Assembly: GCA_963713865.1 (NCBI GenBank)
Contig: OY970208.1
Location: 651,957 to 715,956 of the forward strand
From: an uncultured candidate division Zixibacteria bacterium
Lineage (GTDB): Bacteria; Zixibacteria; MSB-5A5; RBG-16-43-9
Length of the DNA: 64,000 nt
Direction: 5' to 3'
Positions 345 to 58,283 of the stretch are shown in pieces. A program made the translations under genes and the position numbers. Below the pieces are notes generated by a model that saw only the letters and a list, made by a program, of their open reading frames with translations, searched no databases and had not been told where the DNA came from. Each line of letters opens with the position of its first letter. Within the stretch, counting starts at the first letter, position 1.

Positions 345-1373
345 TCAACCTGACTCCTTTACATCCTCTAACAACTTCTGAATAATCTCAAATGTCCCTA
401 CCCCATCTGCCTCAGCATTAAAGCTGGTAACAATCCTGTGTCGCAAAACCGGCAGGGCAACAGCTCTTACATCCTCGCAGGAAGGGGTATATCGGCCATC
501 TAAAATAGCTTTAGTCTTTGCTCCCAAGACCATATATTGGGATGCCCTTGGACCTGCTCCCCAGGTAACCCAGTTTTTTATATATTCTAATGGCTTGTCT
601 ACCTCAGGCGGATCATTTAAAAGTGGGCGGGTATACCGGGCAAGTTTTACTGCATAATTTATCACATGGTCTGATACAGGTACTTTTCTGGCAAGTTTTT
701 GCAATCTAACGATCTCTTCAGCTCCCATAACCTTATCCAGGTTCCAGGAGTAAGCCGAGGTAGTAGACTTGACTATAAGATTTTCTTCGTCTGTTGATGG
801 ATAGTTTATATAGATATTGAACATAAACCGGTCTAACTGTGCTTCAGGTAAAGGATAGGTTCCCTCCTGTTCAATCGGATTCTGGGTGGCTAAGACAAAA
901 AAAGGTTCCGTGAGCTTGTAGGTTTGTCCACCAGCAGTTACCTCATGCTCCTGCATCGCCTGAAGCAAAGCTGACTGGGTCTTGGGAGGGGTCCTGTTGA
1001 TCTCGTCAGCCAGTATTATATTGGCAAAAATTGGCCCCTGGATGAATTTAAAAGCCCTTTCCCCAGTGGTTATATTCTCCTGAATTATTTCCGTCCCGGT
1101 AATATCTGAGGGCATCAAATCCGGAGTGAATTGGATTCTGCTGAATTTCAAATCTAAAATCCTTGAGATTGTGCTGATTAGAAGGGTTTTGGCTAACCCC
1201 GGAACTCCGATTAAAAGGCAGTGTCCATTGGATAATAAAGCAATCAATAACTCATCAATAACCTTATCCTGACCGATAATAACCTTCCTGATCTCCTTTT
1301 TTATCCTGTCCCTGGCATCTCTTAATTTCTCAACTGCTAAAAGGTCATCACCCACTGGCTTTTCATTAGACAT
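345..1373 (-). CDS. MoxR-like AAA+ ATPase
   Basis: 342 aa; Walker A-like LLIGVPGLAKT, typical MoxR length and motif order. Confidence 0.85.
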   Translation of the reverse strand: MSNEKPVGDDLLAVEKLRDARDRIKKEIRKVIIGQDKVIDELLIALLSNGHCLLIGVPGLAKTLLISTISRILDLKFSRIQFTPDLMPSDITGTEIIQENITTGERAFKFIQGPIFANIILADEINRTPPKTQSALLQAMQEHEVTAGGQTYKLTEPFFVLATQNPIEQEGTYPLPEAQLDRFMFNIYINYPSTDEENLIVKSTTSAYSWNLDKVMGAEEIVRLQKLARKVPVSDHVINYAVKLARYTRPLLNDPPEVDKPLEYIKNWVTWGAGPRASQYMVLGAKTKAILDGRYTPSCEDVRAVALPVLRHRIVTSFNAEADGVGTFEIIQKLLEDVKESG

Positions 1374-3663: not shown

Positions 3664-4536
3664 TTACAGAGTTATCTTAATCAACTCTAAGATTCTGTTC
3701 AAATCTTCATCCGAATAAAATTCAATTAAAATTTTTCCTCTCTTCCTACCTTTTACTATTTTAACTGAGGTCCCAAAATATTGTTTAAGTTTATCTTCGA
3801 TTAATTGCAGCTGAGGATAAACTCTTTTCAATCTTCTTGCTTTGAGTCTCTTTGTACCATAAATCCTTTCCTCAACTTCTCTAACTGATAACCCCTTCGC
3901 TATAATCTCTTTTGCGAATTCTATCCTTTGACTTTCAGAATCTAAACTTAGAAGAGCTCTGGCATGACCCTCTGAAAGTCTGCCTGAGACTATATGTCCC
4001 TGAATCTCAACCGACAAATTTAAAAGTCTCAAAATATTAGAAATAGTAGTCCGATCCTTCCCAACTTTTTTTGAAATATCCTCCTGGGAAACACCGAATT
4101 CTTCAATTAATTTTTTATAACCTCTACCCTGATCAATCGGATTTAAGTCTTCTCTCTGAATATTTTCAATAATTGATAGCTCTAACAAACCCTCTTTTGA
4201 CAGATTTTCTGTCAAAATGGCTGGAATTATTGACAAGCCAAGCTTTTTTACTGCAACAAGTCTTCTTTCTCCTGCAACTAATTCATATCCATCATCTATC
4301 TTTCTTACTATTATCGGCTGAATAACCCCCTTTTCTTTTATCGAATTTGCTAACTCATTTAACTTTTCAGGATCAAAACTACCTCTTGGTTGATATGGGT
4401 TAGGTTTGATCTCTTCAACTTCCAATTCTAGAACTCTTCTTTTCTCTTTTCCTATAGATTTTTCTTCAGACTTGATTTCCTGAGGTAGATCAGGAATCAA
4501 GGCTTTTATCCCTTTACCTAAAGCTACTCTGGTCAT
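3664..4536 (-). CDS. parB: chromosome partitioning protein ParB
   Basis: 290 aa; ParB box GERRLVAVKKLGL, HTH; overlaps parA as usual. Confidence 0.9.
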   Translation of the reverse strand: MTRVALGKGIKALIPDLPQEIKSEEKSIGKEKRRVLELEVEEIKPNPYQPRGSFDPEKLNELANSIKEKGVIQPIIVRKIDDGYELVAGERRLVAVKKLGLSIIPAILTENLSKEGLLELSIIENIQREDLNPIDQGRGYKKLIEEFGVSQEDISKKVGKDRTTISNILRLLNLSVEIQGHIVSGRLSEGHARALLSLDSESQRIEFAKEIIAKGLSVREVEERIYGTKRLKARRLKRVYPQLQLIEDKLKQYFGTSVKIVKGRKRGKILIEFYSDEDLNRILELIKITL

Positions 4537-27748: not shown

Positions 27749-28864
27749 ATGAAGTTCACAATTTTAAAAAGTAAGCTCCTTTCTGCTCTTCAGGATATTG
27801 TCAATGTAGTTCCCAGTAAAACTACTTTGCCGGTTTTATCTCACCTGCTCTTAGAAACGGATGATTCCAAATTAAAATTAGCCGCTACAGACTTAGATAT
27901 ATCAATTGTAACTACCATACCGGCAAATGTGATAAAAAAAGGCGGGATAACTATTCCGGCTAAAACCTTAACTGATATAATCAGGGAATCACCCGAGACC
28001 CAGATAGAGATAAATACCACTGAAAACCGGATGGAGCTAAAGATCGATCAAGGTGTATATAAATTACCAGGCTTGCCAGTGGATGAGTTCCCTAAATTAC
28101 CAACGGTAAATCTATCCAAAGAGATAAAAATATCCGGTACAGATTTATGCCGGATGATAAGAAAAACCATCTTTGCTATTTCTATGGATGAAACCAGACC
28201 TGCTTTAAATGGTGTTCTGTGGCACACCAAAGGTGAAAATATGCAGATGGTAGCCACAGATGGTCACCGCTTAACAAAATTTTCCAGAGTAAATAAAAAA
28301 TTAAAAGGGTTACACGAAGATGTGATCGTACCACCGAAGATCTTAAATCTTTTACTCAGGTTAATCGGAGATCAGGATAAAGAGATTGGGGTGATTTTCG
28401 AGGAAAAAAATCTAATCTTCGATTTAGGGGATACGATTTTATCCACCCGGTTAATAGAAGGACCTTACCCGAACTTCGAACAGGTTATACCCAAGGATAA
28501 CGATAAAAAATTAATCGTGGATAAGGAGCTTTTAGCTTCAACCGTGAGAAGGGTTTCAATACTTTCAAATATGCTCACCCATCAGGTGAAATTCTCAATA
28601 AAAAAAGATAGTCTAGAGCTTTCTTCTGCCAACTTCGACCTGGGTGGAGAGGCCAAGGAGAAAATCCCCTGCGAATACAAAAACGATGAGATGGATATCG
28701 GTTATAATGCCCTTTACATTCAGGACGTCTTAAAACAGACCGATGGGGATGAGGTGGTTTTTGAGTTCTCCAGCCCGGTCTCAGCCGGTGTGGTCTATTC
28801 AACCCAGAAAAAAGAAGATGAAGATTATCTCTGCCTGATAATGCCCCTGAGGTTGGTGGAATAG
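27749..28864 (+). CDS. dnaN: DNA polymerase III beta sliding clamp DnaN
   Basis: 371 aa; three-domain clamp similarity; strong RBS AAGGAGG. Confidence 0.95.
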   Translation: MKFTILKSKLLSALQDIVNVVPSKTTLPVLSHLLLETDDSKLKLAATDLDISIVTTIPANVIKKGGITIPAKTLTDIIRESPETQIEINTTENRMELKIDQGVYKLPGLPVDEFPKLPTVNLSKEIKISGTDLCRMIRKTIFAISMDETRPALNGVLWHTKGENMQMVATDGHRLTKFSRVNKKLKGLHEDVIVPPKILNLLLRLIGDQDKEIGVIFEEKNLIFDLGDTILSTRLIEGPYPNFEQVIPKDNDKKLIVDKELLASTVRRVSILSNMLTHQVKFSIKKDSLELSSANFDLGGEAKEKIPCEYKNDEMDIGYNALYIQDVLKQTDGDEVVFEFSSPVSAGVVYSTQKKEDEDYLCLIMPLRLVE

Positions 28865-52421: not shown

Positions 52422-55400
52422 TTAGATCCTGGTTACAGAGATTTCTGCTTTTTCTCCATTTATATCCCATTCTAAGGTGAGTTCTCCTTTCTCTCCCTTG
52501 TGGGATATAACCTTGGCTAAAGTCTCCTTTTTTATATAATCCTCAAAAGATTTTATAGCCTTTTCTAATCTTTCGGTTCCAATTATATTAACTTTAATCC
52601 GATCCATAACCTGAAATCCGGCCTGTCTCCTCATATTCTGTATCTTGTTCACTAACTCCCGGGCAAAACCCTCATCTTTTAAAGCCTCATTGATATACGT
52701 ATCAATCCCTACTTTGTATCCATCTCCGGACTCAACTAAAAGACCTTCTTTCTCTTTTTCTTCCAATTCCAGATCCTCTAAGGAAAGCTCAATCTTTTCA
52801 CCTTCTGATTCTACCTGAATTTTTTCCTGAGCTTTCAGCTCCTTCAGCTTCTCAGAACTTAAAGACCGTATAAGCTCAACCACCTGATTTACTTTCTTCC
52901 CGAACTTCGGACCCAGGCACTGGAACTTAGGCTTGGCTTTATAATCGACCAGAAATAGTTCATCCTGAACCAGGTTTATATGTTTAATATTTATTTCCTC
53001 AGAAATCAAGAGTAAAATTGGCTCAAGCTCATCTTTTTTTGCCCGCGGAGGGATTAATACGAACATCTTCTCCAAAGGCTGTCTTATCTTTATTCCAGCC
53101 CTGTTCCTTCCGGCACGGGCTAAGGATGCGATGATCCTGGCCTTGTCCATCCTCTCCTCTAATTTGAGATCGATTAACTTCTCCTTATAATCGGGGTAAT
53201 CCTCTAAATGAACGCTTTCATGAGTGCTATCAAACCTTCCAGCTAATTCTTGAAAGAGCTCCTCTGAGATAAAGGGAACAAAAGGAGCAATCAATTTAGT
53301 CAAGCTTACCAGAACCTCCCAGAGAGTTTGATAAGCACAATATTTATTTGAATCCAATCCGGATTGCCAGAACCTTTTGCGGTTTCTTCTCACATACCAG
53401 TTAGATAAATCCTCGATCACGAACTCCTGTATCTTCCTGGATGTCCTGGTAATATCATAATTATCTAAATCTGCTATCACTTCTCTGGTCAAAGAATTAA
53501 GTTTGGAGATAATCCACCTGTCGATCTCCGGACGATTCTTTACCTCGATTTTTTCCTTTTCAGGCTCGAACTTATCAATGTTAGCATAAAGGGCAAAGAA
53601 GGAATAGGTATTCCTCAGGGTGCTCAAGAATTTCCTTTCGACTTCCGTTACCCCCTCCATATCAAAACGGGTAGGAAGCCAGGGCTGGCTTACCCAGACC
53701 AGATACCATCTTAAGGCATCTGCTCCTTGATTATTCAGCACGTCCCAGGGATCAACCACGTTCCCGATATGTTTGCTCATCTTCTGCCCTTCTTTATCCT
53801 GTATGAACTCGATAACGATAACGTTCTTATAAGCCGGCTGGTCAAAAAGGAAGGTAGATATGGCTAAAAGTGAATAAAACCATCCACGGGTCTGATCTAT
53901 GGCCTCGCTTATAAACTCAGCCGGGAACATCTCCTTAAAATATTCTTTATTCTCAAAGGGATAATGAAACTGGGCATAAGGCATAGAGCCGGAATCAAAC
54001 CAGCAGTCGATAACCTCAGGCGTCCTTTTCATTAAACCCTTACATTTCGGGCAGGTTAAAGTTATTCCGTCTATCATCGGCTTGTGCAAATCTAATCCTT
54101 CAGGAACCTCTTTGCTCAAATCCTTTAATTCCTGAATACTGGCAACAGATTTCTCCTCACCACATTTCTGGCAGATCCAGATATTCAGGGGGGTTCCCCA
54201 GAACCTTTCTCTGGAGAGTGCCCAGTCGACGTTATTCTCCAGCCACTCCCCAAACCTCCCTTCTTTGATCTCCTCCGGATACCAGTTTATCTTCTTATTA
54301 TTAGAAATCAATTTATCTTTATAAGCAGTGGTCTTGATGTACCAGGATTTACGCGCATAATAAATTAAAGGGGAATCACATCTCCAGCAGAAAGGATAGG
54401 TATGCAGGTATTTTCCAGAATAGTAAAGGATTCCTCTTTTTTTCAAATCCTCCAGGATCAAAGGGTCAGCATCTTTTACAAATTTACCTTTCCAGGGGGT
54501 CACTTCATCTGTAAAACTTCCGGTAGAATCCACTGGTTGGACTAAAGGCAGGTTGTAAACTATTGATAAGTTGTAATCATCCGCTCCAAAAGCTGGTGCA
54601 ATATGCACAATCCCGGTTCCATCTTCAGTGGTAACAAAATCAGCCAAACAGACATAGAACGCTTTTTTCCGGTCTAATTTCGCATATTCAAACAGTGGGA
54701 AATACCTTATCTTTTCTAAGTCTTTCCCCTTAAACTCTTCTAAGATTTTATATTCACCTCGAATGACTTTATCTAAAAGTGGTTTTGCCAGGATTAATTT
54801 ATCTCCTTTATGTTCGATTTTAACATAATCGACATCCGGATGAACTGCTAAGGCAACATTGGAAATCAAAGTCCAGGGTGTAGTAGTCCAGACCAAGAAA
54901 TAGGTGTCCTCAAACTCCTCCAATCTTATTTTCACAAAAACCGAAGGATCTTCTACTTCTTCATAACCCTGGGCAACCTCATGGCTGGAAAGGGTTGTGC
55001 CGCACCTGGGGCAGTAAGGAACGATCTTGTGTCCTTTATAGATTAACCCTTTCTTATAATACTCTGATAAAATCCACCAGACCGATTCTATATATTCATT
55101 GGTATAGGTGATATAGGCATCTTTTAAATCCAGCCAGTAACCGATCCTCTCGGTCAGCTCATCCCAGTCCTTTAAATACCTGAAAACGCTTTCCTTGCAT
55201 TTAGCGTTGAAATTCTCAATCCCGTATTTTTCAACATCCTCCTTGGTTTTTAAACCTAATTCCTTTTCAACTTCAATCTCCACTGGAAGGCCATGCGTAT
55301 CCCAGCCAGCTTTCCTATCCACCCTGTATCCCCGCATAGTCTTGTATCTACAGATCAAATCTTTTATGGTCCGGGAGATAACATGATGAACCCCTGGTTT

Positions 55401-55559
55401 TCCATTGGCAGTAGGCGGACCTTCATAGAACACGAATTTTGGAGAATCCTTCCTTTTCTGGATGCTCTTTTCAAAGATTTTATTCTCCTTCCAGAAGGAT
55501 AAAATCCTTTTCTCCATCTCCGGATAGTTAAAATCTTCCTTTATCTCTTTAAATGCCAC
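52422..55559 (-). CDS. ileS: isoleucine--tRNA ligase
   Basis: 1045 aa; class I motifs (HHV-type HIGH, KMSKH); editing domain; ileS-lspA linkage. Confidence 0.95.
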   Translation of the reverse strand: MAFKEIKEDFNYPEMEKRILSFWKENKIFEKSIQKRKDSPKFVFYEGPPTANGKPGVHHVISRTIKDLICRYKTMRGYRVDRKAGWDTHGLPVEIEVEKELGLKTKEDVEKYGIENFNAKCKESVFRYLKDWDELTERIGYWLDLKDAYITYTNEYIESVWWILSEYYKKGLIYKGHKIVPYCPRCGTTLSSHEVAQGYEEVEDPSVFVKIRLEEFEDTYFLVWTTTPWTLISNVALAVHPDVDYVKIEHKGDKLILAKPLLDKVIRGEYKILEEFKGKDLEKIRYFPLFEYAKLDRKKAFYVCLADFVTTEDGTGIVHIAPAFGADDYNLSIVYNLPLVQPVDSTGSFTDEVTPWKGKFVKDADPLILEDLKKRGILYYSGKYLHTYPFCWRCDSPLIYYARKSWYIKTTAYKDKLISNNKKINWYPEEIKEGRFGEWLENNVDWALSRERFWGTPLNIWICQKCGEEKSVASIQELKDLSKEVPEGLDLHKPMIDGITLTCPKCKGLMKRTPEVIDCWFDSGSMPYAQFHYPFENKEYFKEMFPAEFISEAIDQTRGWFYSLLAISTFLFDQPAYKNVIVIEFIQDKEGQKMSKHIGNVVDPWDVLNNQGADALRWYLVWVSQPWLPTRFDMEGVTEVERKFLSTLRNTYSFFALYANIDKFEPEKEKIEVKNRPEIDRWIISKLNSLTREVIADLDNYDITRTSRKIQEFVIEDLSNWYVRRNRKRFWQSGLDSNKYCAYQTLWEVLVSLTKLIAPFVPFISEELFQELAGRFDSTHESVHLEDYPDYKEKLIDLKLEERMDKARIIASLARAGRNRAGIKIRQPLEKMFVLIPPRAKKDELEPILLLISEEINIKHINLVQDELFLVDYKAKPKFQCLGPKFGKKVNQVVELIRSLSSEKLKELKAQEKIQVESEGEKIELSLEDLELEEKEKEGLLVESGDGYKVGIDTYINEALKDEGFARELVNKIQNMRRQAGFQVMDRIKVNIIGTERLEKAIKSFEDYIKKETLAKVISHKGEKGELTLEWDINGEKAEISVTRI

Positions 55560-55582
55560 TTTGTATCACCTCAAGTTTATTA

Positions 55583-55650
55583 TATACGCAAATTTCATTG
55601 TCCTAAGTTGCACAAGTGAAACTTATTACAGGGTAACCGCTCCCTGCATA
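55583..55650. repeat. direct repeat flanking the HNH endonuclease gene (copy A, upstream of ileS)
   Basis: atatacgcaaatttcattgtcctaagttgcacaagtgaaacttattacagggtaacc versus 57174-57240 catatacgcaattttcattctcctaagttgcatactggaaacttactacaggctaaac (~80% identity). Confidence 0.7.
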
Positions 55651-55738
55651 AAAGAAGTTCCGCCGAAAACGGAATTTGGGTGAAGGTGCGAAGCACAAAC
55701 ACCGTGTTAGCTGAAGTATTTTTAATTTTCACTTTTCT

Positions 55739-57070
55739 TTAATAAATTGTATCCAATTTGCCTAAATTACATTCTTTACAAAGTGTCTGTAGATTATCAA
55801 AAGTTGTTTCTCCTCCATTTGAATATGGTATTTTATGGTCAATCTGTAATTCAATTTCAGGTGGTTTTCTTCCACATATCACACACATAAATTTATCTCT
55901 CTGCAAAACTCTAAAACGTAATCGAGGAGATGGAATCCTGGGAGTTTTCATTTCAATAATTTGAGTTTCTCCAGTTTTTTTTGCTTCAGTTGTTCCCTTT
56001 TGGGTTATCAAAGGGGTTACTTCTTGCTTATCCTCTTCAATATTCGTTTTAAACTCTTTATTTTCTGTATGCTCCTCATAATCACCTTTACGGTCATCAA
56101 CAAATGAATAAATTGCTTTCGTCCAGCTTCCAAATTTCTTTGCAAAAACACTCCGTGAAATTTGGCTATATTGATTCATTTCCCTCCATGTTGGCTGTCT
56201 TCCAAGCTTTTCCCAAATTCTTTGTAACTCAGAAAAAAGTTCCTCTCGTGAGTATTTTACATGACCGTCTTTCATACCAATCTTTTTTACGGCATTTTCC
56301 CAGCTACCAAAATGATTTTGAAAAGTTCCAATAGAATATTTGCCTCCATATTTTTTATAAGCTGAAAACTTCAATACCTTTAATTTATTTTTTTCAGCTA
56401 TTGTCTTTAATTGGGATAATAATAATTCAGGTGTAGCTTGACCTACCAATCCTTTTATATCATAACCAAATTTTAAACAAAATACTTCTACTGATTTTTT
56501 CCATGTTCCAAATTTTCGCTCGTAAACCCTCATGCTTATATTACTATTATCTCTAAATTCATCATAGGAAGGGCGTCTGCCGAACTTACCCCATACTCTT
56601 GACATTTCTAAAAATAATTCTTCTTCTGTAAATCCCCTTGGCTTAGGTTTAATAATTTTAATAATCTTTGGCTGTTTTTTCAAAGATAAAACATTTTCTA
56701 ACAGGTTCTGCCAGGAATTATGCCCTAAACGCTTTTTTAATGTTTCTACGCTATATTTTCCACCATTCTTAACATAGAAAGTCTGAGTAAAATACTTTCC
56801 TTGATTTAAGTCCTTTATTTTATTTAAATCTTTTGTCAAATCTATCGAGTTAATTGGTCCTCTCTCATATGGAAACCCACCTTTTTTCATTGCCTCTGGC
56901 CAAGAACCAAAGCGCTTGATTATAGTACTCGTATGAACTCTTGAATACCTATTAAAATCCCCTGTCTTTGGGGCTTTATTCATAAAATATGTAGATACTA
57001 CTCTCTTAATTTCAGCGATTATTGCTTCATCGCTATAATTTGTTAAACGATTTGGTTCGAAATTATTCAT
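55739..57070 (-). CDS. free-standing HNH endonuclease with N-terminal FGSW-repeat domain
   Basis: 443 aa; C-terminal HNH motif IDHKIPYSNGGETTFDNLQTLCKECN; four repeats of FG(S/T)WxxA; AT-rich; flanked by ~65-bp direct repeats. Confidence 0.75.
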   Translation of the reverse strand: MNNFEPNRLTNYSDEAIIAEIKRVVSTYFMNKAPKTGDFNRYSRVHTSTIIKRFGSWPEAMKKGGFPYERGPINSIDLTKDLNKIKDLNQGKYFTQTFYVKNGGKYSVETLKKRLGHNSWQNLLENVLSLKKQPKIIKIIKPKPRGFTEEELFLEMSRVWGKFGRRPSYDEFRDNSNISMRVYERKFGTWKKSVEVFCLKFGYDIKGLVGQATPELLLSQLKTIAEKNKLKVLKFSAYKKYGGKYSIGTFQNHFGSWENAVKKIGMKDGHVKYSREELFSELQRIWEKLGRQPTWREMNQYSQISRSVFAKKFGSWTKAIYSFVDDRKGDYEEHTENKEFKTNIEEDKQEVTPLITQKGTTEAKKTGETQIIEMKTPRIPSPRLRFRVLQRDKFMCVICGRKPPEIELQIDHKIPYSNGGETTFDNLQTLCKECNLGKLDTIY

Positions 57071-57173
57071 TGCAATTTTTTCAATTTAAAAATATTTCCG
57101 CTAACTTGTTCATCTCTGCATTGCCGATAAAAGCCTTACGGTTCGTAGAGCGAATATTATCCCATTTTAGGGG

Positions 57174-57240
57174 CATATACGCAATTTTCATTCTCCTAAG
57201 TTGCATACTGGAAACTTACTACAGGCTAAACATTCCAACT
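57174..57240. repeat. direct repeat flanking the HNH endonuclease gene (copy B, overlaps the 3' end of the CDF transporter gene)
   Basis: see copy A. Confidence 0.7.
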
Positions 57241-58117
57241 GCAAAGTGGTATGGGTAATGCCAAACTTCTCCTGCAAAATTCTATTTGCCTCTTTTAACA
57301 TCTGGTCGCTTTTGCTCACCATCTGGTCCTCTATAACTAAATGCCCGGATAAAGCGTAGATCCCTGAAGATATAGTCCAGAGATGCAAATCATGCACATC
57401 CTTAACTCCTTTGATCTTCTTGATCTCCCCAGCGATAGTTTCCGCATTCAGATGTTTAGGAACCGCCTCCAAGAGTATATTACTTGACTCGGTAATCAAA
57501 CCTATAGCCCCTCTCAAGATTATTCCGCCGATCAAAATTGCAACAATCGGGTCAATTAAATAGAATTTAGTAAAAAATATAATTATCCCTGCTACTATTA
57601 CTCCGATCGAAGACAAGGCGTCCCCTAAGATATGCAAGAATGCTCCTCTGATATTCAGATTACCCCTGCTTGAGCCTTTTAATATTAAGATCCCAATTAT
57701 ATTTACCACAAGCCCTAAGGTTGCAACTCCTAACATCAAAGGTGCTTTTATCTGCGGAGGGGCAAGAAAGCGTCTATAAGCTTCATAGAATATGTATCCA
57801 GAAATAAAAATCAAGGTTACTCCATTCAAAAGGGCAACTAAGATTTCCGTTCTGTGAAATCCGTAGGTTCTCCTGGCATCTGCCGGTCTTCTGGATAATT
57901 TTAAAGCAAAAAAACTCAAAGCCAGGGCTAAAGTATCGGTGAGCATATGCCCGGCATCACCGATTAGGGACAAACTACCGGATAATATCCCACCCAGAAA
58001 CTCCACTAAGGTCATCAGTGCAGTTAATAATAGAGGAATTACTAAAACCTTTGGCTCAGGTTTGAAATTATTGTTGTGATTATGCTCAGACATATTGATC
58101 TTTCGTAGCGTCCTCAC
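57188..58117 (-). CDS. cation diffusion facilitator (CzcD-like) transporter
   Basis: 309 aa; 6 TM helices plus C-terminal cytoplasmic domain; HxxxD-type motifs. Confidence 0.85.
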   Translation of the reverse strand: MRTLRKINMSEHNHNNNFKPEPKVLVIPLLLTALMTLVEFLGGILSGSLSLIGDAGHMLTDTLALALSFFALKLSRRPADARRTYGFHRTEILVALLNGVTLIFISGYIFYEAYRRFLAPPQIKAPLMLGVATLGLVVNIIGILILKGSSRGNLNIRGAFLHILGDALSSIGVIVAGIIIFFTKFYLIDPIVAILIGGIILRGAIGLITESSNILLEAVPKHLNAETIAGEIKKIKGVKDVHDLHLWTISSGIYALSGHLVIEDQMVSKSDQMLKEANRILQEKFGITHTTLQLECLACSKFPVCNLGE

Positions 58118-58218
58118 TTTTTGTCATTGCGAGGAGTCCACAGGACGACGAAGCAATCCGTCCCTCACAGAGTAAACAGATTGCTTCGTCTCGCCTTTGT
58201 GGCGGACTCGCAATGACA
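58105..58218. repeat. nested-palindrome repeat, G family (gtcattgcgag...gacgaagcaatc...gattgcttcg...ctcgcaatgac)
   Basis: copies at 50195-50239, 51376-51466, 58105-58218, 35652-35688; covaries with the H family. Confidence 0.85.
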
Positions 58219-58283
58219 AGAGAAGATGATAGCCGCAACCTTTAGGTTGCGTAAATCCTGATTTCGCAGGCTTAAGCCTGCGG

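Follow-up and report, generated by a model that had tools for sequence, protein, structure and literature searches.

The subject of this work is a short interval in a 64,000-nucleotide (nt) stretch of DNA from an uncultured candidate division Zixibacteria bacterium (contig OY970208.1 of assembly GCA_963713865.1, positions 651,957 to 715,956), and we refer to the whole stretch as the window. Here a gene for a 443-amino-acid (aa) HNH protein lies between czcD, which codes for a CDF cation efflux transporter, and ileS, the gene for isoleucyl-tRNA synthetase. An earlier sequence-only reading of the window had described this arrangement, and both the open reading frames (ORFs) and the Pfam matches bear it out. 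The comparison with related contigs shows at least six alternative cargoes at the same slot, the HNH gene being one; the insertion target is the 3' end of czcD, and the slot is bounded downstream by the conserved gene ileS. The features of the locus are as follows.

52422..55559, minus strand: ileS (isoleucyl-tRNA synthetase), GTG start, identified as an ORF with the Pfam domains tRNA-synt_1, Anticodon_1 and DUF5915
55560..55581, minus strand: ileS leader with the ribosome-binding site GAGGTG, contiguous with the repeat in empty and filled sites
55582..55643, minus strand: DR1, the ileS-proximal copy of a 62-nt direct repeat, attR-like
55644..55705, minus strand: RF, right arm of the putative cassette, a structured and conserved spacer
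55706..55728: inverted-repeat arm beyond the HNH stop, AAATTAAAAATACTTCAGCTAAC in the gene-strand reading
55739..57070, minus strand: HNH cargo gene, 443 aa, between czcD and ileS
57083..57105: inverted-repeat arm ahead of the HNH start, GTTAGCGGAAATATTTTTAAATT in the gene-strand reading
57106..57174, minus strand: LF, left arm of the putative cassette, a conserved spacer after the czcD stop that ends in ..CAATGCAGAGATGAACAA
57175..57236, minus strand: DR2, the czcD-proximal copy of the repeat, attL-like
57188..58093/58117, minus strand: czcD, coding for the CDF cation efflux transporter (301 aa when counted from the ATG), with the Pfam domains Cation_efflux and ZT_dimer

The GC content is 0.31-0.35 across the HNH gene, as opposed to about 0.41 in the flanks. 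A known RNA leader upstream of ileS, such as a T-box, was also considered and rejected: Rfam returned nothing at E<=1 between 55000 and 58000, and nothing at the gathering score in the window as a whole.

The two copies of the direct repeat (55582-55643 and 57175-57236) are identical at 51 of 62 positions (82%), a score that none of 60 shuffles of the flanks reached, and the core of the repeat occurs only twice in the window. The target, a stretch of about 62 nt, straddles the czcD stop codon and runs into the ileS leader, and it is present twice in the filled loci. DR2 completes czcD, of which it encodes the last 16 codons (..ECLACSKFPVCNLGE) and the stop codon, followed by 13 nt more, and DR1 stays attached to ileS, ending 22 nt ahead of the GTG. 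The sequence-only reading had noticed this duplication and had seen in it the leader region of ileS; this proved right inasmuch as the repeat comprises the czcD 3' end together with the ileS leader. Its placement of the upstream copy directly next to the HNH gene needs correction: this copy ends 104 nt before the HNH start, and the other begins 95 nt after the HNH stop. When translated in the czcD frame, DR1 still gives ..ERLPCNKFHLCNLGQ followed by a stop. The cysteine motif at the C-terminus of the transporter, ECLACSKFPVCNLGE in the window, recurs as ECLVCKQFPVCNLGQ and ECTECNQLSVCSLNERI, in each case directly before the stop codon, at two sites without cargo (L171 and L167, see below), and on this comparison the C-terminus encoded by DR2 appears to be the ancestral one. 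DR1 would thus be a displaced duplicate of the czcD 3' end, and the ileS promoter probably lies within DR1 as well. The 11 differences between DR1 and DR2 fall on codon positions 1, 2 and 3 in 4, 2 and 4 cases, plus one in the non-coding part (hand count), a pattern that fits a non-coding relic and does not separate the models discussed below.

Relatives of the locus were collected in two ways. A scan with the N-terminus of IleS gave 80 loci, and the best match among these is a Zixibacteriota metagenome-assembled genome (MAG) with 81% identity (L002). The gene order divIVA-PNP-ileS-dksA-lspA is kept in many of the 80 loci, which include MAGs of Ignavibacteria, Calditrichota, Krumholzibacteriota, Bacteroidota and Zixibacteriota, and in none of the 80 is ileS preceded by czcD or by an HNH gene, an arrangement that we take to be ancestral. 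In L002 (L002:3699-4560) there is no czcD and the PNP stop is separated from the ileS start by 10 nt, so czcD was gained or lost at this position within Zixibacteria. Close czcD orthologs, with 81-94% aa identity, were found between PNP and ileS, as in the window, in eight slot loci (one of which, L165, is cut before ileS) and at one empty site. These loci, and two more distant ones, are listed below with the identity of czcD and the content of the slot; the cargo identities have PADLOC and NCBIfam support.

L171: czcD 89%; empty, 35 nt from the czcD stop to the ileS GTG, one repeat copy
L167/L168: czcD 62%; empty, 22 nt between the genes, more distant
L158/L159: czcD 94%; a 328-aa unknown protein and a methyltransferase/specificity fusion
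L160-L162: czcD 88%; cargo as in L158
L163: czcD 82%; a methyltransferase and an MwoI-like endonuclease
L166: czcD 82%; a methyltransferase and a HinfI-like endonuclease
L164: czcD 81%; SbcD-like and Rad50/SMC-like genes, then a 466-aa MPN635_N gene
L170: czcD 82%; an MNT/HepT toxin-antitoxin pair, and behind it several genes that include a methyltransferase fragment and an EVE-domain gene
L165: czcD 82%; cargo after czcD, cut by the contig end

Different defence systems thus occupy one position between czcD and ileS, namely three types of restriction-modification (RM) system and HepT/MNT. Both the restriction (R) and the modification (M) gene are present in L163 and L166, and probably in L158/L160; the cargo of the window is a lone HNH gene. 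When the czcD-ileS interval was compared among the relatives, no HNH ortholog was found at the slot in any of them, which leaves the window as the only locus with an HNH gene, and the case that would have spoken against an insertion, a vertically inherited ortholog lacking the flank duplication, did not occur. If positions 55582-57174 (1593 bp) are deleted from the window, the remaining sequence aligns without gaps to the junction in L171; it follows that the HNH gene is an insertion, as had been proposed, and that the slot is polymorphic among close relatives. The presence/absence polymorphism, with L171 empty, is not specific to the nuclease, since unrelated cargo is also found there. Between the window and the relatives the nucleotide identity of the flanking genes is 80-93%, so these are different species of one lineage.

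The same pair of repeats, together with the same arms, surrounds unrelated cargo in L158, L160, L163, L164, L166 and L170. Repeat pairs of 34-63 nt and 76-87% identity are found in all six full slot loci, whatever the cargo. The duplication therefore belongs to the slot and preceded the arrival of the HNH gene. The idea that a homing-type HNH insertion had itself produced the duplication does not survive this comparison, all the more as further copies of the repeat lie between tandem cassettes in L164 and L170. A 12-nt core, ATGCAACTTAGG, is nearly invariant in 16 repeat copies from 9 loci (the variant in DR1 of the window is GTGCAACTTAGG). To the left of the core the copies are of two kinds: those next to czcD are coding, and those next to ileS, as well as a copy in the middle of the L164 array, share a non-coding CGTTACCCTGTAATAAGTTTCCCTT; DR1 of the window is of this second, CGTTACCCTGTAATAAGTTTC type. 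To the right, the repeat continues either into the conserved left arm (..CCCCTAAAATGGGATAATATCCGCAATGCAGATATGAACAG) or else into the ileS leader (AATAAACTTGAGGTGATACAAAGTG). The leader is nearly identical in L158, L160, L164 and L171, the last being an empty site; in L163, L166 and L170 it has diverged further. On the basis of these patterns the repeat seems to have arisen by att-like duplication of the 3' end of czcD together with the ileS leader, and to be common to a family of cassettes that carry no recombinase. Two other identities of the repeat were considered and rejected. For the window, a dispersed repeat family is at odds with the distribution of the repeat core and of the left-arm motif, both of which are confined there to the slot; and TTATATGAAAT resembles the XerD arm of a dif site by eye, with no XerC arm at 6-nt spacing at either border.

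Double occupancy was seen in two loci. In L164 (L164:1915-6933) two cassettes lie in tandem, the first with an SbcD-like phosphoesterase and a 773-aa Rad50/SMC-like ATPase, the second with a 466-aa MPN635_N protein, and they are parted by a complete junction of right arm, repeat and left arm (about L164:5303-5500). This is the joint that would be expected of a circular cassette. The SbcD/Rad50-like pair and the 466-aa protein could be uncharacterised defence genes; their matches to defence libraries are weak or absent. In L170 (L170:2506-5208) the MNT/HepT pair follows straight after the czcD stop, and after it come a diverged repeat-like stretch, a left arm and the second cassette.

Between the repeat copies the order is left arm (about 70 nt), cargo and right arm (about 62 nt). 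The left arm is conserved in a seven-locus alignment, its end motif AATGCAGAKATGAAYARGTTA was found in slot loci only, and promoter-like hexamers are located at its 5' edge (57191-57164, minus strand). The right arm of the window contains a terminator-like hairpin (55674-55658) followed by T-rich CTTCTTTTAT. It is homologous in 7 copies and its three-helix structure is conserved: 81.7% of the cells are paired vs 66.1% in shuffles (reached in 0 of 500), slid controls give at most 56.8%, and the covariation score is 0.442 vs 0.217 in shuffles (again 0 of 500). In L158, L160 and L163 the arm folds ..TATAAC against GTTACCC and has an additional inner stem; in the window the 5' half of the outer stem is missing. 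A hairpin in the left arm (TTGCGTATAT..ATATCCGCAA) was considered and given up as too weak, as it has one compensatory pair in L160 and a broken stem in the other copies.

The window and L158 share a private stretch of 33-52 nt in the left arm (CTCTACGA..CCGTAAGGCTTTTATCGG; window 57106-57150, L158:6935-6990) that is absent from the other five loci, and that forms a hairpin in L158 and is partly deleted in the window. Since the two loci share this insert and differ in cargo, the last swap took place inside the arms, at or near the inverted repeats described next. A drop of identity near the cargo was looked for as a sign of co-conversion, and the sliding identity profiles of the window against L158, L160 and L163 gave no clear tract beyond the arms.

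The sequence-only reading had missed a 23-nt inverted repeat around the HNH ORF (55706-55728 and 57083-57105), in which 20 of 23 positions are complementary and which lies 10-12 nt from the ends of the ORF. Its chance expectation is 0.01 per window and its score was reached in none of 100 shuffles. With the window included, four loci have inverted repeats of 20-23 nt around the cargo, the others being L158, L160 and L163 (0-1 of 100 shuffles reach their scores); none was detected in L166, and the first cassette of L164 has a weaker pair of 16 nt. The outer 12 nt of the arms are homologous across these four loci and co-vary on both sides (GTTAGCGG/CAGCTAAC, GTTATATG/CATATAAC and TTATACGC/GCGTATAA), and the inner part is specific for the cargo. 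Candidate roles for these inverted repeats are the terminal repeats of a unit mobilised in trans, a second recombination site, or a long-range stem between the 5' and 3' ends of the cargo mRNA. We also considered whether they are a hallmark of the HNH family; among 21 loci of the family only 4 have inverted repeats that no shuffle in 100 reaches, and two more have repeats reached by at most 5 in 100, which makes them a property of some contexts and not of the gene. Separately, HNH-family genes in three unrelated metagenome contigs (L084:130-1640, L090:100-1810 and L082:950-2360) have inverted repeats of the GTT..AAC type, 25 nt long in L084 and 9-10 nt in L082 and L090, with long imperfect palindromes after the genes, and L090 has in addition a 46-nt imperfect direct repeat, both sides of which end in ..TTCGTTG. 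From their sequence these three loci look like integron-type cassettes.

Taking these observations together, we consider it probable that the segment 55582-57174 (1593 bp) of the window is a cassette with a single gene, and that it was inserted at the czcD 3' end, where one lineage of Zixibacteria has used the slot repeatedly. In terms of mechanism, cassettes would enter and leave by Campbell-type recombination within the repeat, at the core ATGCAACTTAGG. Because no cassette encodes a recombinase, they might be moved by one supplied in trans, or by RecA acting on the 62-nt homology. The left arm would then supply the promoter of the cargo, and the terminator in the right arm would shield ileS from the cargo transcript; DR1 in turn would provide the ileS promoter, which originally lay inside the czcD 3' end. 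The pattern of the copies is that of attL, attR, attP and attB in Campbell-type integration with tandem accretion, and unequal exchange between copies could produce it equally well.

Several points weigh against the cassette interpretation. Firstly, no recombinase gene was found in any of the cassettes or in the 12-15 kb around the slot loci, nor among the ten window ORFs of 270-370 aa that were scanned. Secondly, the first cassette of L170 is without the usual left arm. Thirdly, the relatives are metagenome contigs of different species, and no exchange within a population was seen. The Campbell model leaves the 20-23-nt inverted repeats of four loci unexplained, and the arms could be conserved for transcription alone; the right-arm hairpins could instead, or also, be recombination sites. 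Finally, as regards a defence function of the cargo, the PADLOC matches of the HNH protein are weak and confined to the HNH motif (mREase_IV, E=5.4e-4).

A more far-reaching version of the cassette interpretation is highly speculative, and we regard it as doubtful. According to it the slot would be an undescribed platform for cassette capture, integron-like and without an adjacent integrase. Small circular cassettes with a junction of about 200 nt (two hairpin modules around the 12-nt core) would be inserted by an unlinked recombinase into the coding czcD 3' end, which is thereby rebuilt; the arms would serve as promoter and terminator, and the 20-23-nt GTTA..TAAC inverted repeats as a second site for the exchange of cargo.

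Among the rival explanations, the one that survives best dispenses with site-specific recombination. After a founding event, all later variety would come from homologous recombination with the DNA of relatives, namely from allelic replacement through the homology of czcD and ileS, and to unequal crossing-over between the repeat copies, which would make both arrays and empty sites. We find this conceivable and on balance unlikely. A repeat of more than 30 nt, an insert without a mobility gene and a single copy in the empty site are all features of the RM insertions described by Furuta, Abe and Kobayashi 2010 (PMC2853133), and all three are seen here. The flanking genes, which are 85-93% identical, are able to recombine, and the L164 junction would be a natural product of unequal exchange between repeat copies. 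Moreover, both copies in L166 carry a private variant, GAAAAATACG, suggesting conversion between them. What homologous recombination does not explain is that unrelated cargo sits between the same arms of about 70 and 62 nt at the same nucleotide, and that the 12-nt core is nearly invariant even in non-coding copies where the neighbouring positions vary. In addition, the conserved outer part of the inverted repeats is only 12 nt long, which is too short for RecA.

It can also be asked whether the cassettes are those of an integron, captured at a secondary site by an integrase encoded elsewhere, with the right arm as an attC-like site (..TAAC .. GTTACCC) and the start at G|TTA... The cargo boundaries GTTA.. 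and ..TAAC agree with this, as do the covarying right arms of L158, L160 and L163, whose layout is like R''-L''..L'-R', and the tandem arrangement in a single orientation; the GTT..AAC inverted repeats and 3' palindromes of the HNH-family genes on L084, L082 and L090 can be added to the list. Even so, we consider an integron quite improbable. No integrase, attI or Pc was found near the slot, either in the DNA around the eight slot loci or among the 10 window ORFs, and the boxes deviate from strict RYYYAAC/GTTRRRY. The inverted repeats span the ORF at a length of 20-23 nt, as compared with the 7-nt core, and integron insertion does not give a 62-nt target duplication. Known attC sites are 57-141 nt long, and the composite junction of about 200 nt exceeds them. 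Judged by its boxes and its folding, the right arm spans about 85 nt from ..TAAC to GTTACCC with a covarying stem, the boxes being off consensus and half of the stem being lost in the window; the right-arm stems are equally those of a terminator with matching A and U tracts.

The remaining possibility, that a free-standing HNH homing endonuclease cut the empty allele and copied itself beside ileS, duplicating or hijacking the leader, is very improbable: the polymorphism of the site, the GC dip over the gene, the Pfam name of the repeat ('homing endonuclease associated') and the position of other family members beside highly conserved genes (thrS in L108, a class-I aminoacyl-tRNA synthetase and priA in L107) speak for it, but the identical duplication and arms enclose cargo without HNH in six relatives, homing by double-strand-break repair creates no target duplication, the closest homologs are in unrelated toxin-antitoxin contexts, and there are no full-length phage relatives and just one partial viral-contig match beyond the HNH domain.

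It is useful to compare the slot, read as a cassette site, with systems that are already known. The nearest description is that of the RM insertions of Furuta et al. 2010 (PMC2853133), in which RM units are inserted with target duplications of more than 30 bp, have one copy of the target in the empty site and carry no mobility gene; RM units flanked by inverted repeats are described there as well. Three of the four features by which such units are recognised are present in the window, and the fourth, the R and M genes, is present in relatives and not in the window; the insert is well below 20 kb (1593 bp) and has one ORF and no mobility gene, and the cargo of the relatives is without a recombinase domain. 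The slot resembles these units in its direct repeats of more than 30 nt that are single in the empty site, in the RM cargo of three relatives and in the inner inverted repeats, which are absent from the empty site. It differs from them in that many cargoes, including non-RM ones, share a single target and a single pair of arms, and in that they also occur in tandem with complete junctions. In addition, the repeat of the slot has a nearly invariant 12-nt core, an arm of about 62-80 nt separates the direct repeat from the inverted repeat, and the window has as its cargo just an HNH nuclease, with no methyltransferase beside it.

Integron cassettes, including clusters of attC sites lacking integron integrases (CALINs), share with the slot cassettes the promoter-less or small format of 1-3 genes, the single orientation, the tandem arrangement with structured imperfect palindromes in between, the GTT../..AAC boundaries, and a cargo rich in defence and toxin-antitoxin genes. 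In contrast to them, the slot has no nearby IntI/attI, its junction is a composite of about 200 nt, a 62-nt part of a protein gene is duplicated, inverted repeats of 20-23 nt span the ORF and the consensus boxes are approximate.

Elements of the ICESt1 type integrate site-specifically at the 3' end of a gene, which is rebuilt in the process, and their integrase-less derivatives accrete in tandem (cis-mobilizable elements). Likewise, the att-like repeat of the slot restores the 3' end of its target, internal att copies are found in the arrays, and there is no recombinase of their own. The slot elements are smaller, with 1.6-5.3 kb and 1-3 genes, no parental element with an integrase was seen, and the target is czcD rather than a tRNA or typical housekeeping gene.

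A further parallel is provided by defence hotspots flanked by core genes, such as the core defence hotspots of Pseudomonas aeruginosa (PMC10250203) and the defence islands of E. coli (PMC10121019). These hotspots resemble the slot in their fixed position between conserved genes and in defence systems that differ from genome to genome, whereas the slot is set apart by nucleotide-precise borders, a duplicated target, promoter- and terminator-like arms, a junction between tandem units and its occurrence in an uncultured phylum.

Thus it is the locus, rather than the HNH gene, that carries the interest, and the cassette slot itself is compact. It gives a nucleotide-precise picture of the exchange of defence genes at one position in an uncultured phylum, covering a site without cargo, sites with one or two cassettes, a complete junction between cassettes and conserved, structured arms, and at this precision the mechanism of exchange is directly testable. 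It also illustrates how an insertion can preserve both the C-terminus of czcD and the leader of an essential neighbour by duplicating the stretch that they share. As a practical matter, the slot can be used as bait for new defence genes of Zixibacteria, for which the SbcCD-like pair and the 466-aa, 328-aa and HNH proteins are candidates.

The HNH protein of the window contains, N-terminal to its HNH domain, the repeat PF18780 (HNH_repeat), which Pfam reports in four stretches with E=2.5e-49 (165.9 bits vs a cut-off of 26). PF01844 (HNH) covers residues 396-438 (49.1 bits vs a cut-off of 21.4), and with both domains above the gathering score the protein is a member of the PF18780 plus PF01844 family. 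The sequence-only reading had been right about the presence of N-terminal repeats, of which it counted four; the AlphaFold2 (AF2) model and self-alignment give five helical repeats (residues 10-66, 71-131, 145-204, 210-266 and 271-331). In the model the repeats are four-helix units arranged like beads on a string, with a predicted local distance difference test (pLDDT) score of 79 and a predicted template modelling (pTM) score of 0.27; they are followed by a disordered linker (331-375, pLDDT <50) and a small zinc-finger HNH domain (376-438). The residues C396, C399, D411, H412, N426, C431, C434 and N435 are invariant in 25 homologs (CxxC..DH..N..N..CxxC).

The protein has 160 relatives at E<1e-5, the closest of which is 58% identical and lies in an unrelated context; these are about 440 aa long and have the same architecture. 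The proteins annotated as 'homing endonuclease associated repeat-containing protein' or 'HNH endonuclease' in NCBI and UniRef agree with that of the window in architecture, length, catalytic residues and zinc residues. The repeat domain had been thought unusual for a free-standing HNH enzyme, which is not the case: it is the Pfam 'Homing endonuclease associated repeat', a search with the repeat region alone found 3,657 cluster representatives (1,495 at E<=1e-10; proteins of 194-2,237 aa), and it often occurs with a C-terminal HNH domain. The HNH gene by itself is unremarkable and belongs to a known family, no member of which is apparently characterised. The number of repeat units in PF18780 proteins runs from 3 to at least 15, and an HNH domain is also present in some of the proteins scanned. 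Four of them (P0243, P0244, P0254 and P0296) contain at least 15 tandem units in 1,000-1,400 aa, so the number of units differs widely, a trait shared with modular repeat proteins that bind nucleic acids.

In Foldseek and in a profile search of the PDB the matches are confined to the HNH domain, namely to the Gme HNH nickase 4h9d, EcoKMcrA, IscB, the Cas9 HNH domain and 5h0m. A type IV (modification-dependent) restriction enzyme of the McrA kind would join the HNH nuclease to a domain that reads modified bases; ScoMcrA, like EcoKMcrA, matches the HNH domain alone in Foldseek, and the repeats match no known reader domain. No solved structure that covers the PF18780 repeat was found in the profile search or with a two-repeat model (pLDDT 90), which has no structural match at E<0.1 and resembles TetR-type helix-turn-helix domains and a segment of SauUSI only locally. 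The protein is most likely a sequence-specific DNA endonuclease in which five helix-turn-helix-like repeats bind and the HNH domain cuts. As a predicted lone nuclease without a methyltransferase, it must need a modified target or a long, rare site. Most likely it is kept as a defence-type or selfish passenger and is not the agent of the insertion. We speculate that PF18780 arrays, with 3 to at least 15 units joined to HNH, could be a modular scaffold for DNA recognition; a repeat with thousands of members merits biochemical study.

An insertion of the homing type had been suspected, and the searches lend no support to a link with phage, intron or intein homing. Among 50,697 phage records 76 have matches, all of them confined to residues of about 374-442, and there is no full-length relative. 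In 2.9 million viral contigs, 16 of the 17 matches cover the HNH domain only, and the remaining one (L141, cut at the contig end) covers residues 263-438, which include the last repeat. Distant full-length relatives with 23-24% identity are found on haloarchaeal megaplasmids (records H13-H24, e.g. NZ_LN831304.1 74743-75903), some of which have 2-4 matching places each. The close relatives have diverse neighbours: one follows VapBC (L082) and another follows RHH/PemK with ParE nearby (L169). In L172 (L172:162-1729) an upstream HTH_XRE gene of 69 aa shares 4 nt with the start of an HNH homolog of 56% identity, much as if a controller or an antitoxin were coupled to its nuclease.

Two other members of the family lie near genes for aminoacyl-tRNA synthetases: one is 36 nt downstream of thrS (L108:2932-6485), and the other is located between a class-I Trp/Tyr-type tRNA synthetase gene and priA (L107:2550-8749). 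With ileS this makes three such neighbours among a handful of contexts, which could be due to chance.

On the other side of czcD, the spacer between PNP and czcD (window 58094-58283) varies in length and sequence in comparison with L158, L160 and L163; its identity is 0.02-0.5 vs 0.8-0.95 for the genes on either side. Elsewhere the window encodes dnaN (the beta subunit of DNA polymerase III; 27749-28864, plus strand), ParB (3664-4536, minus strand) and a MoxR-type AAA ATPase (345-1373, minus strand), and it may be situated close to the replication origin.

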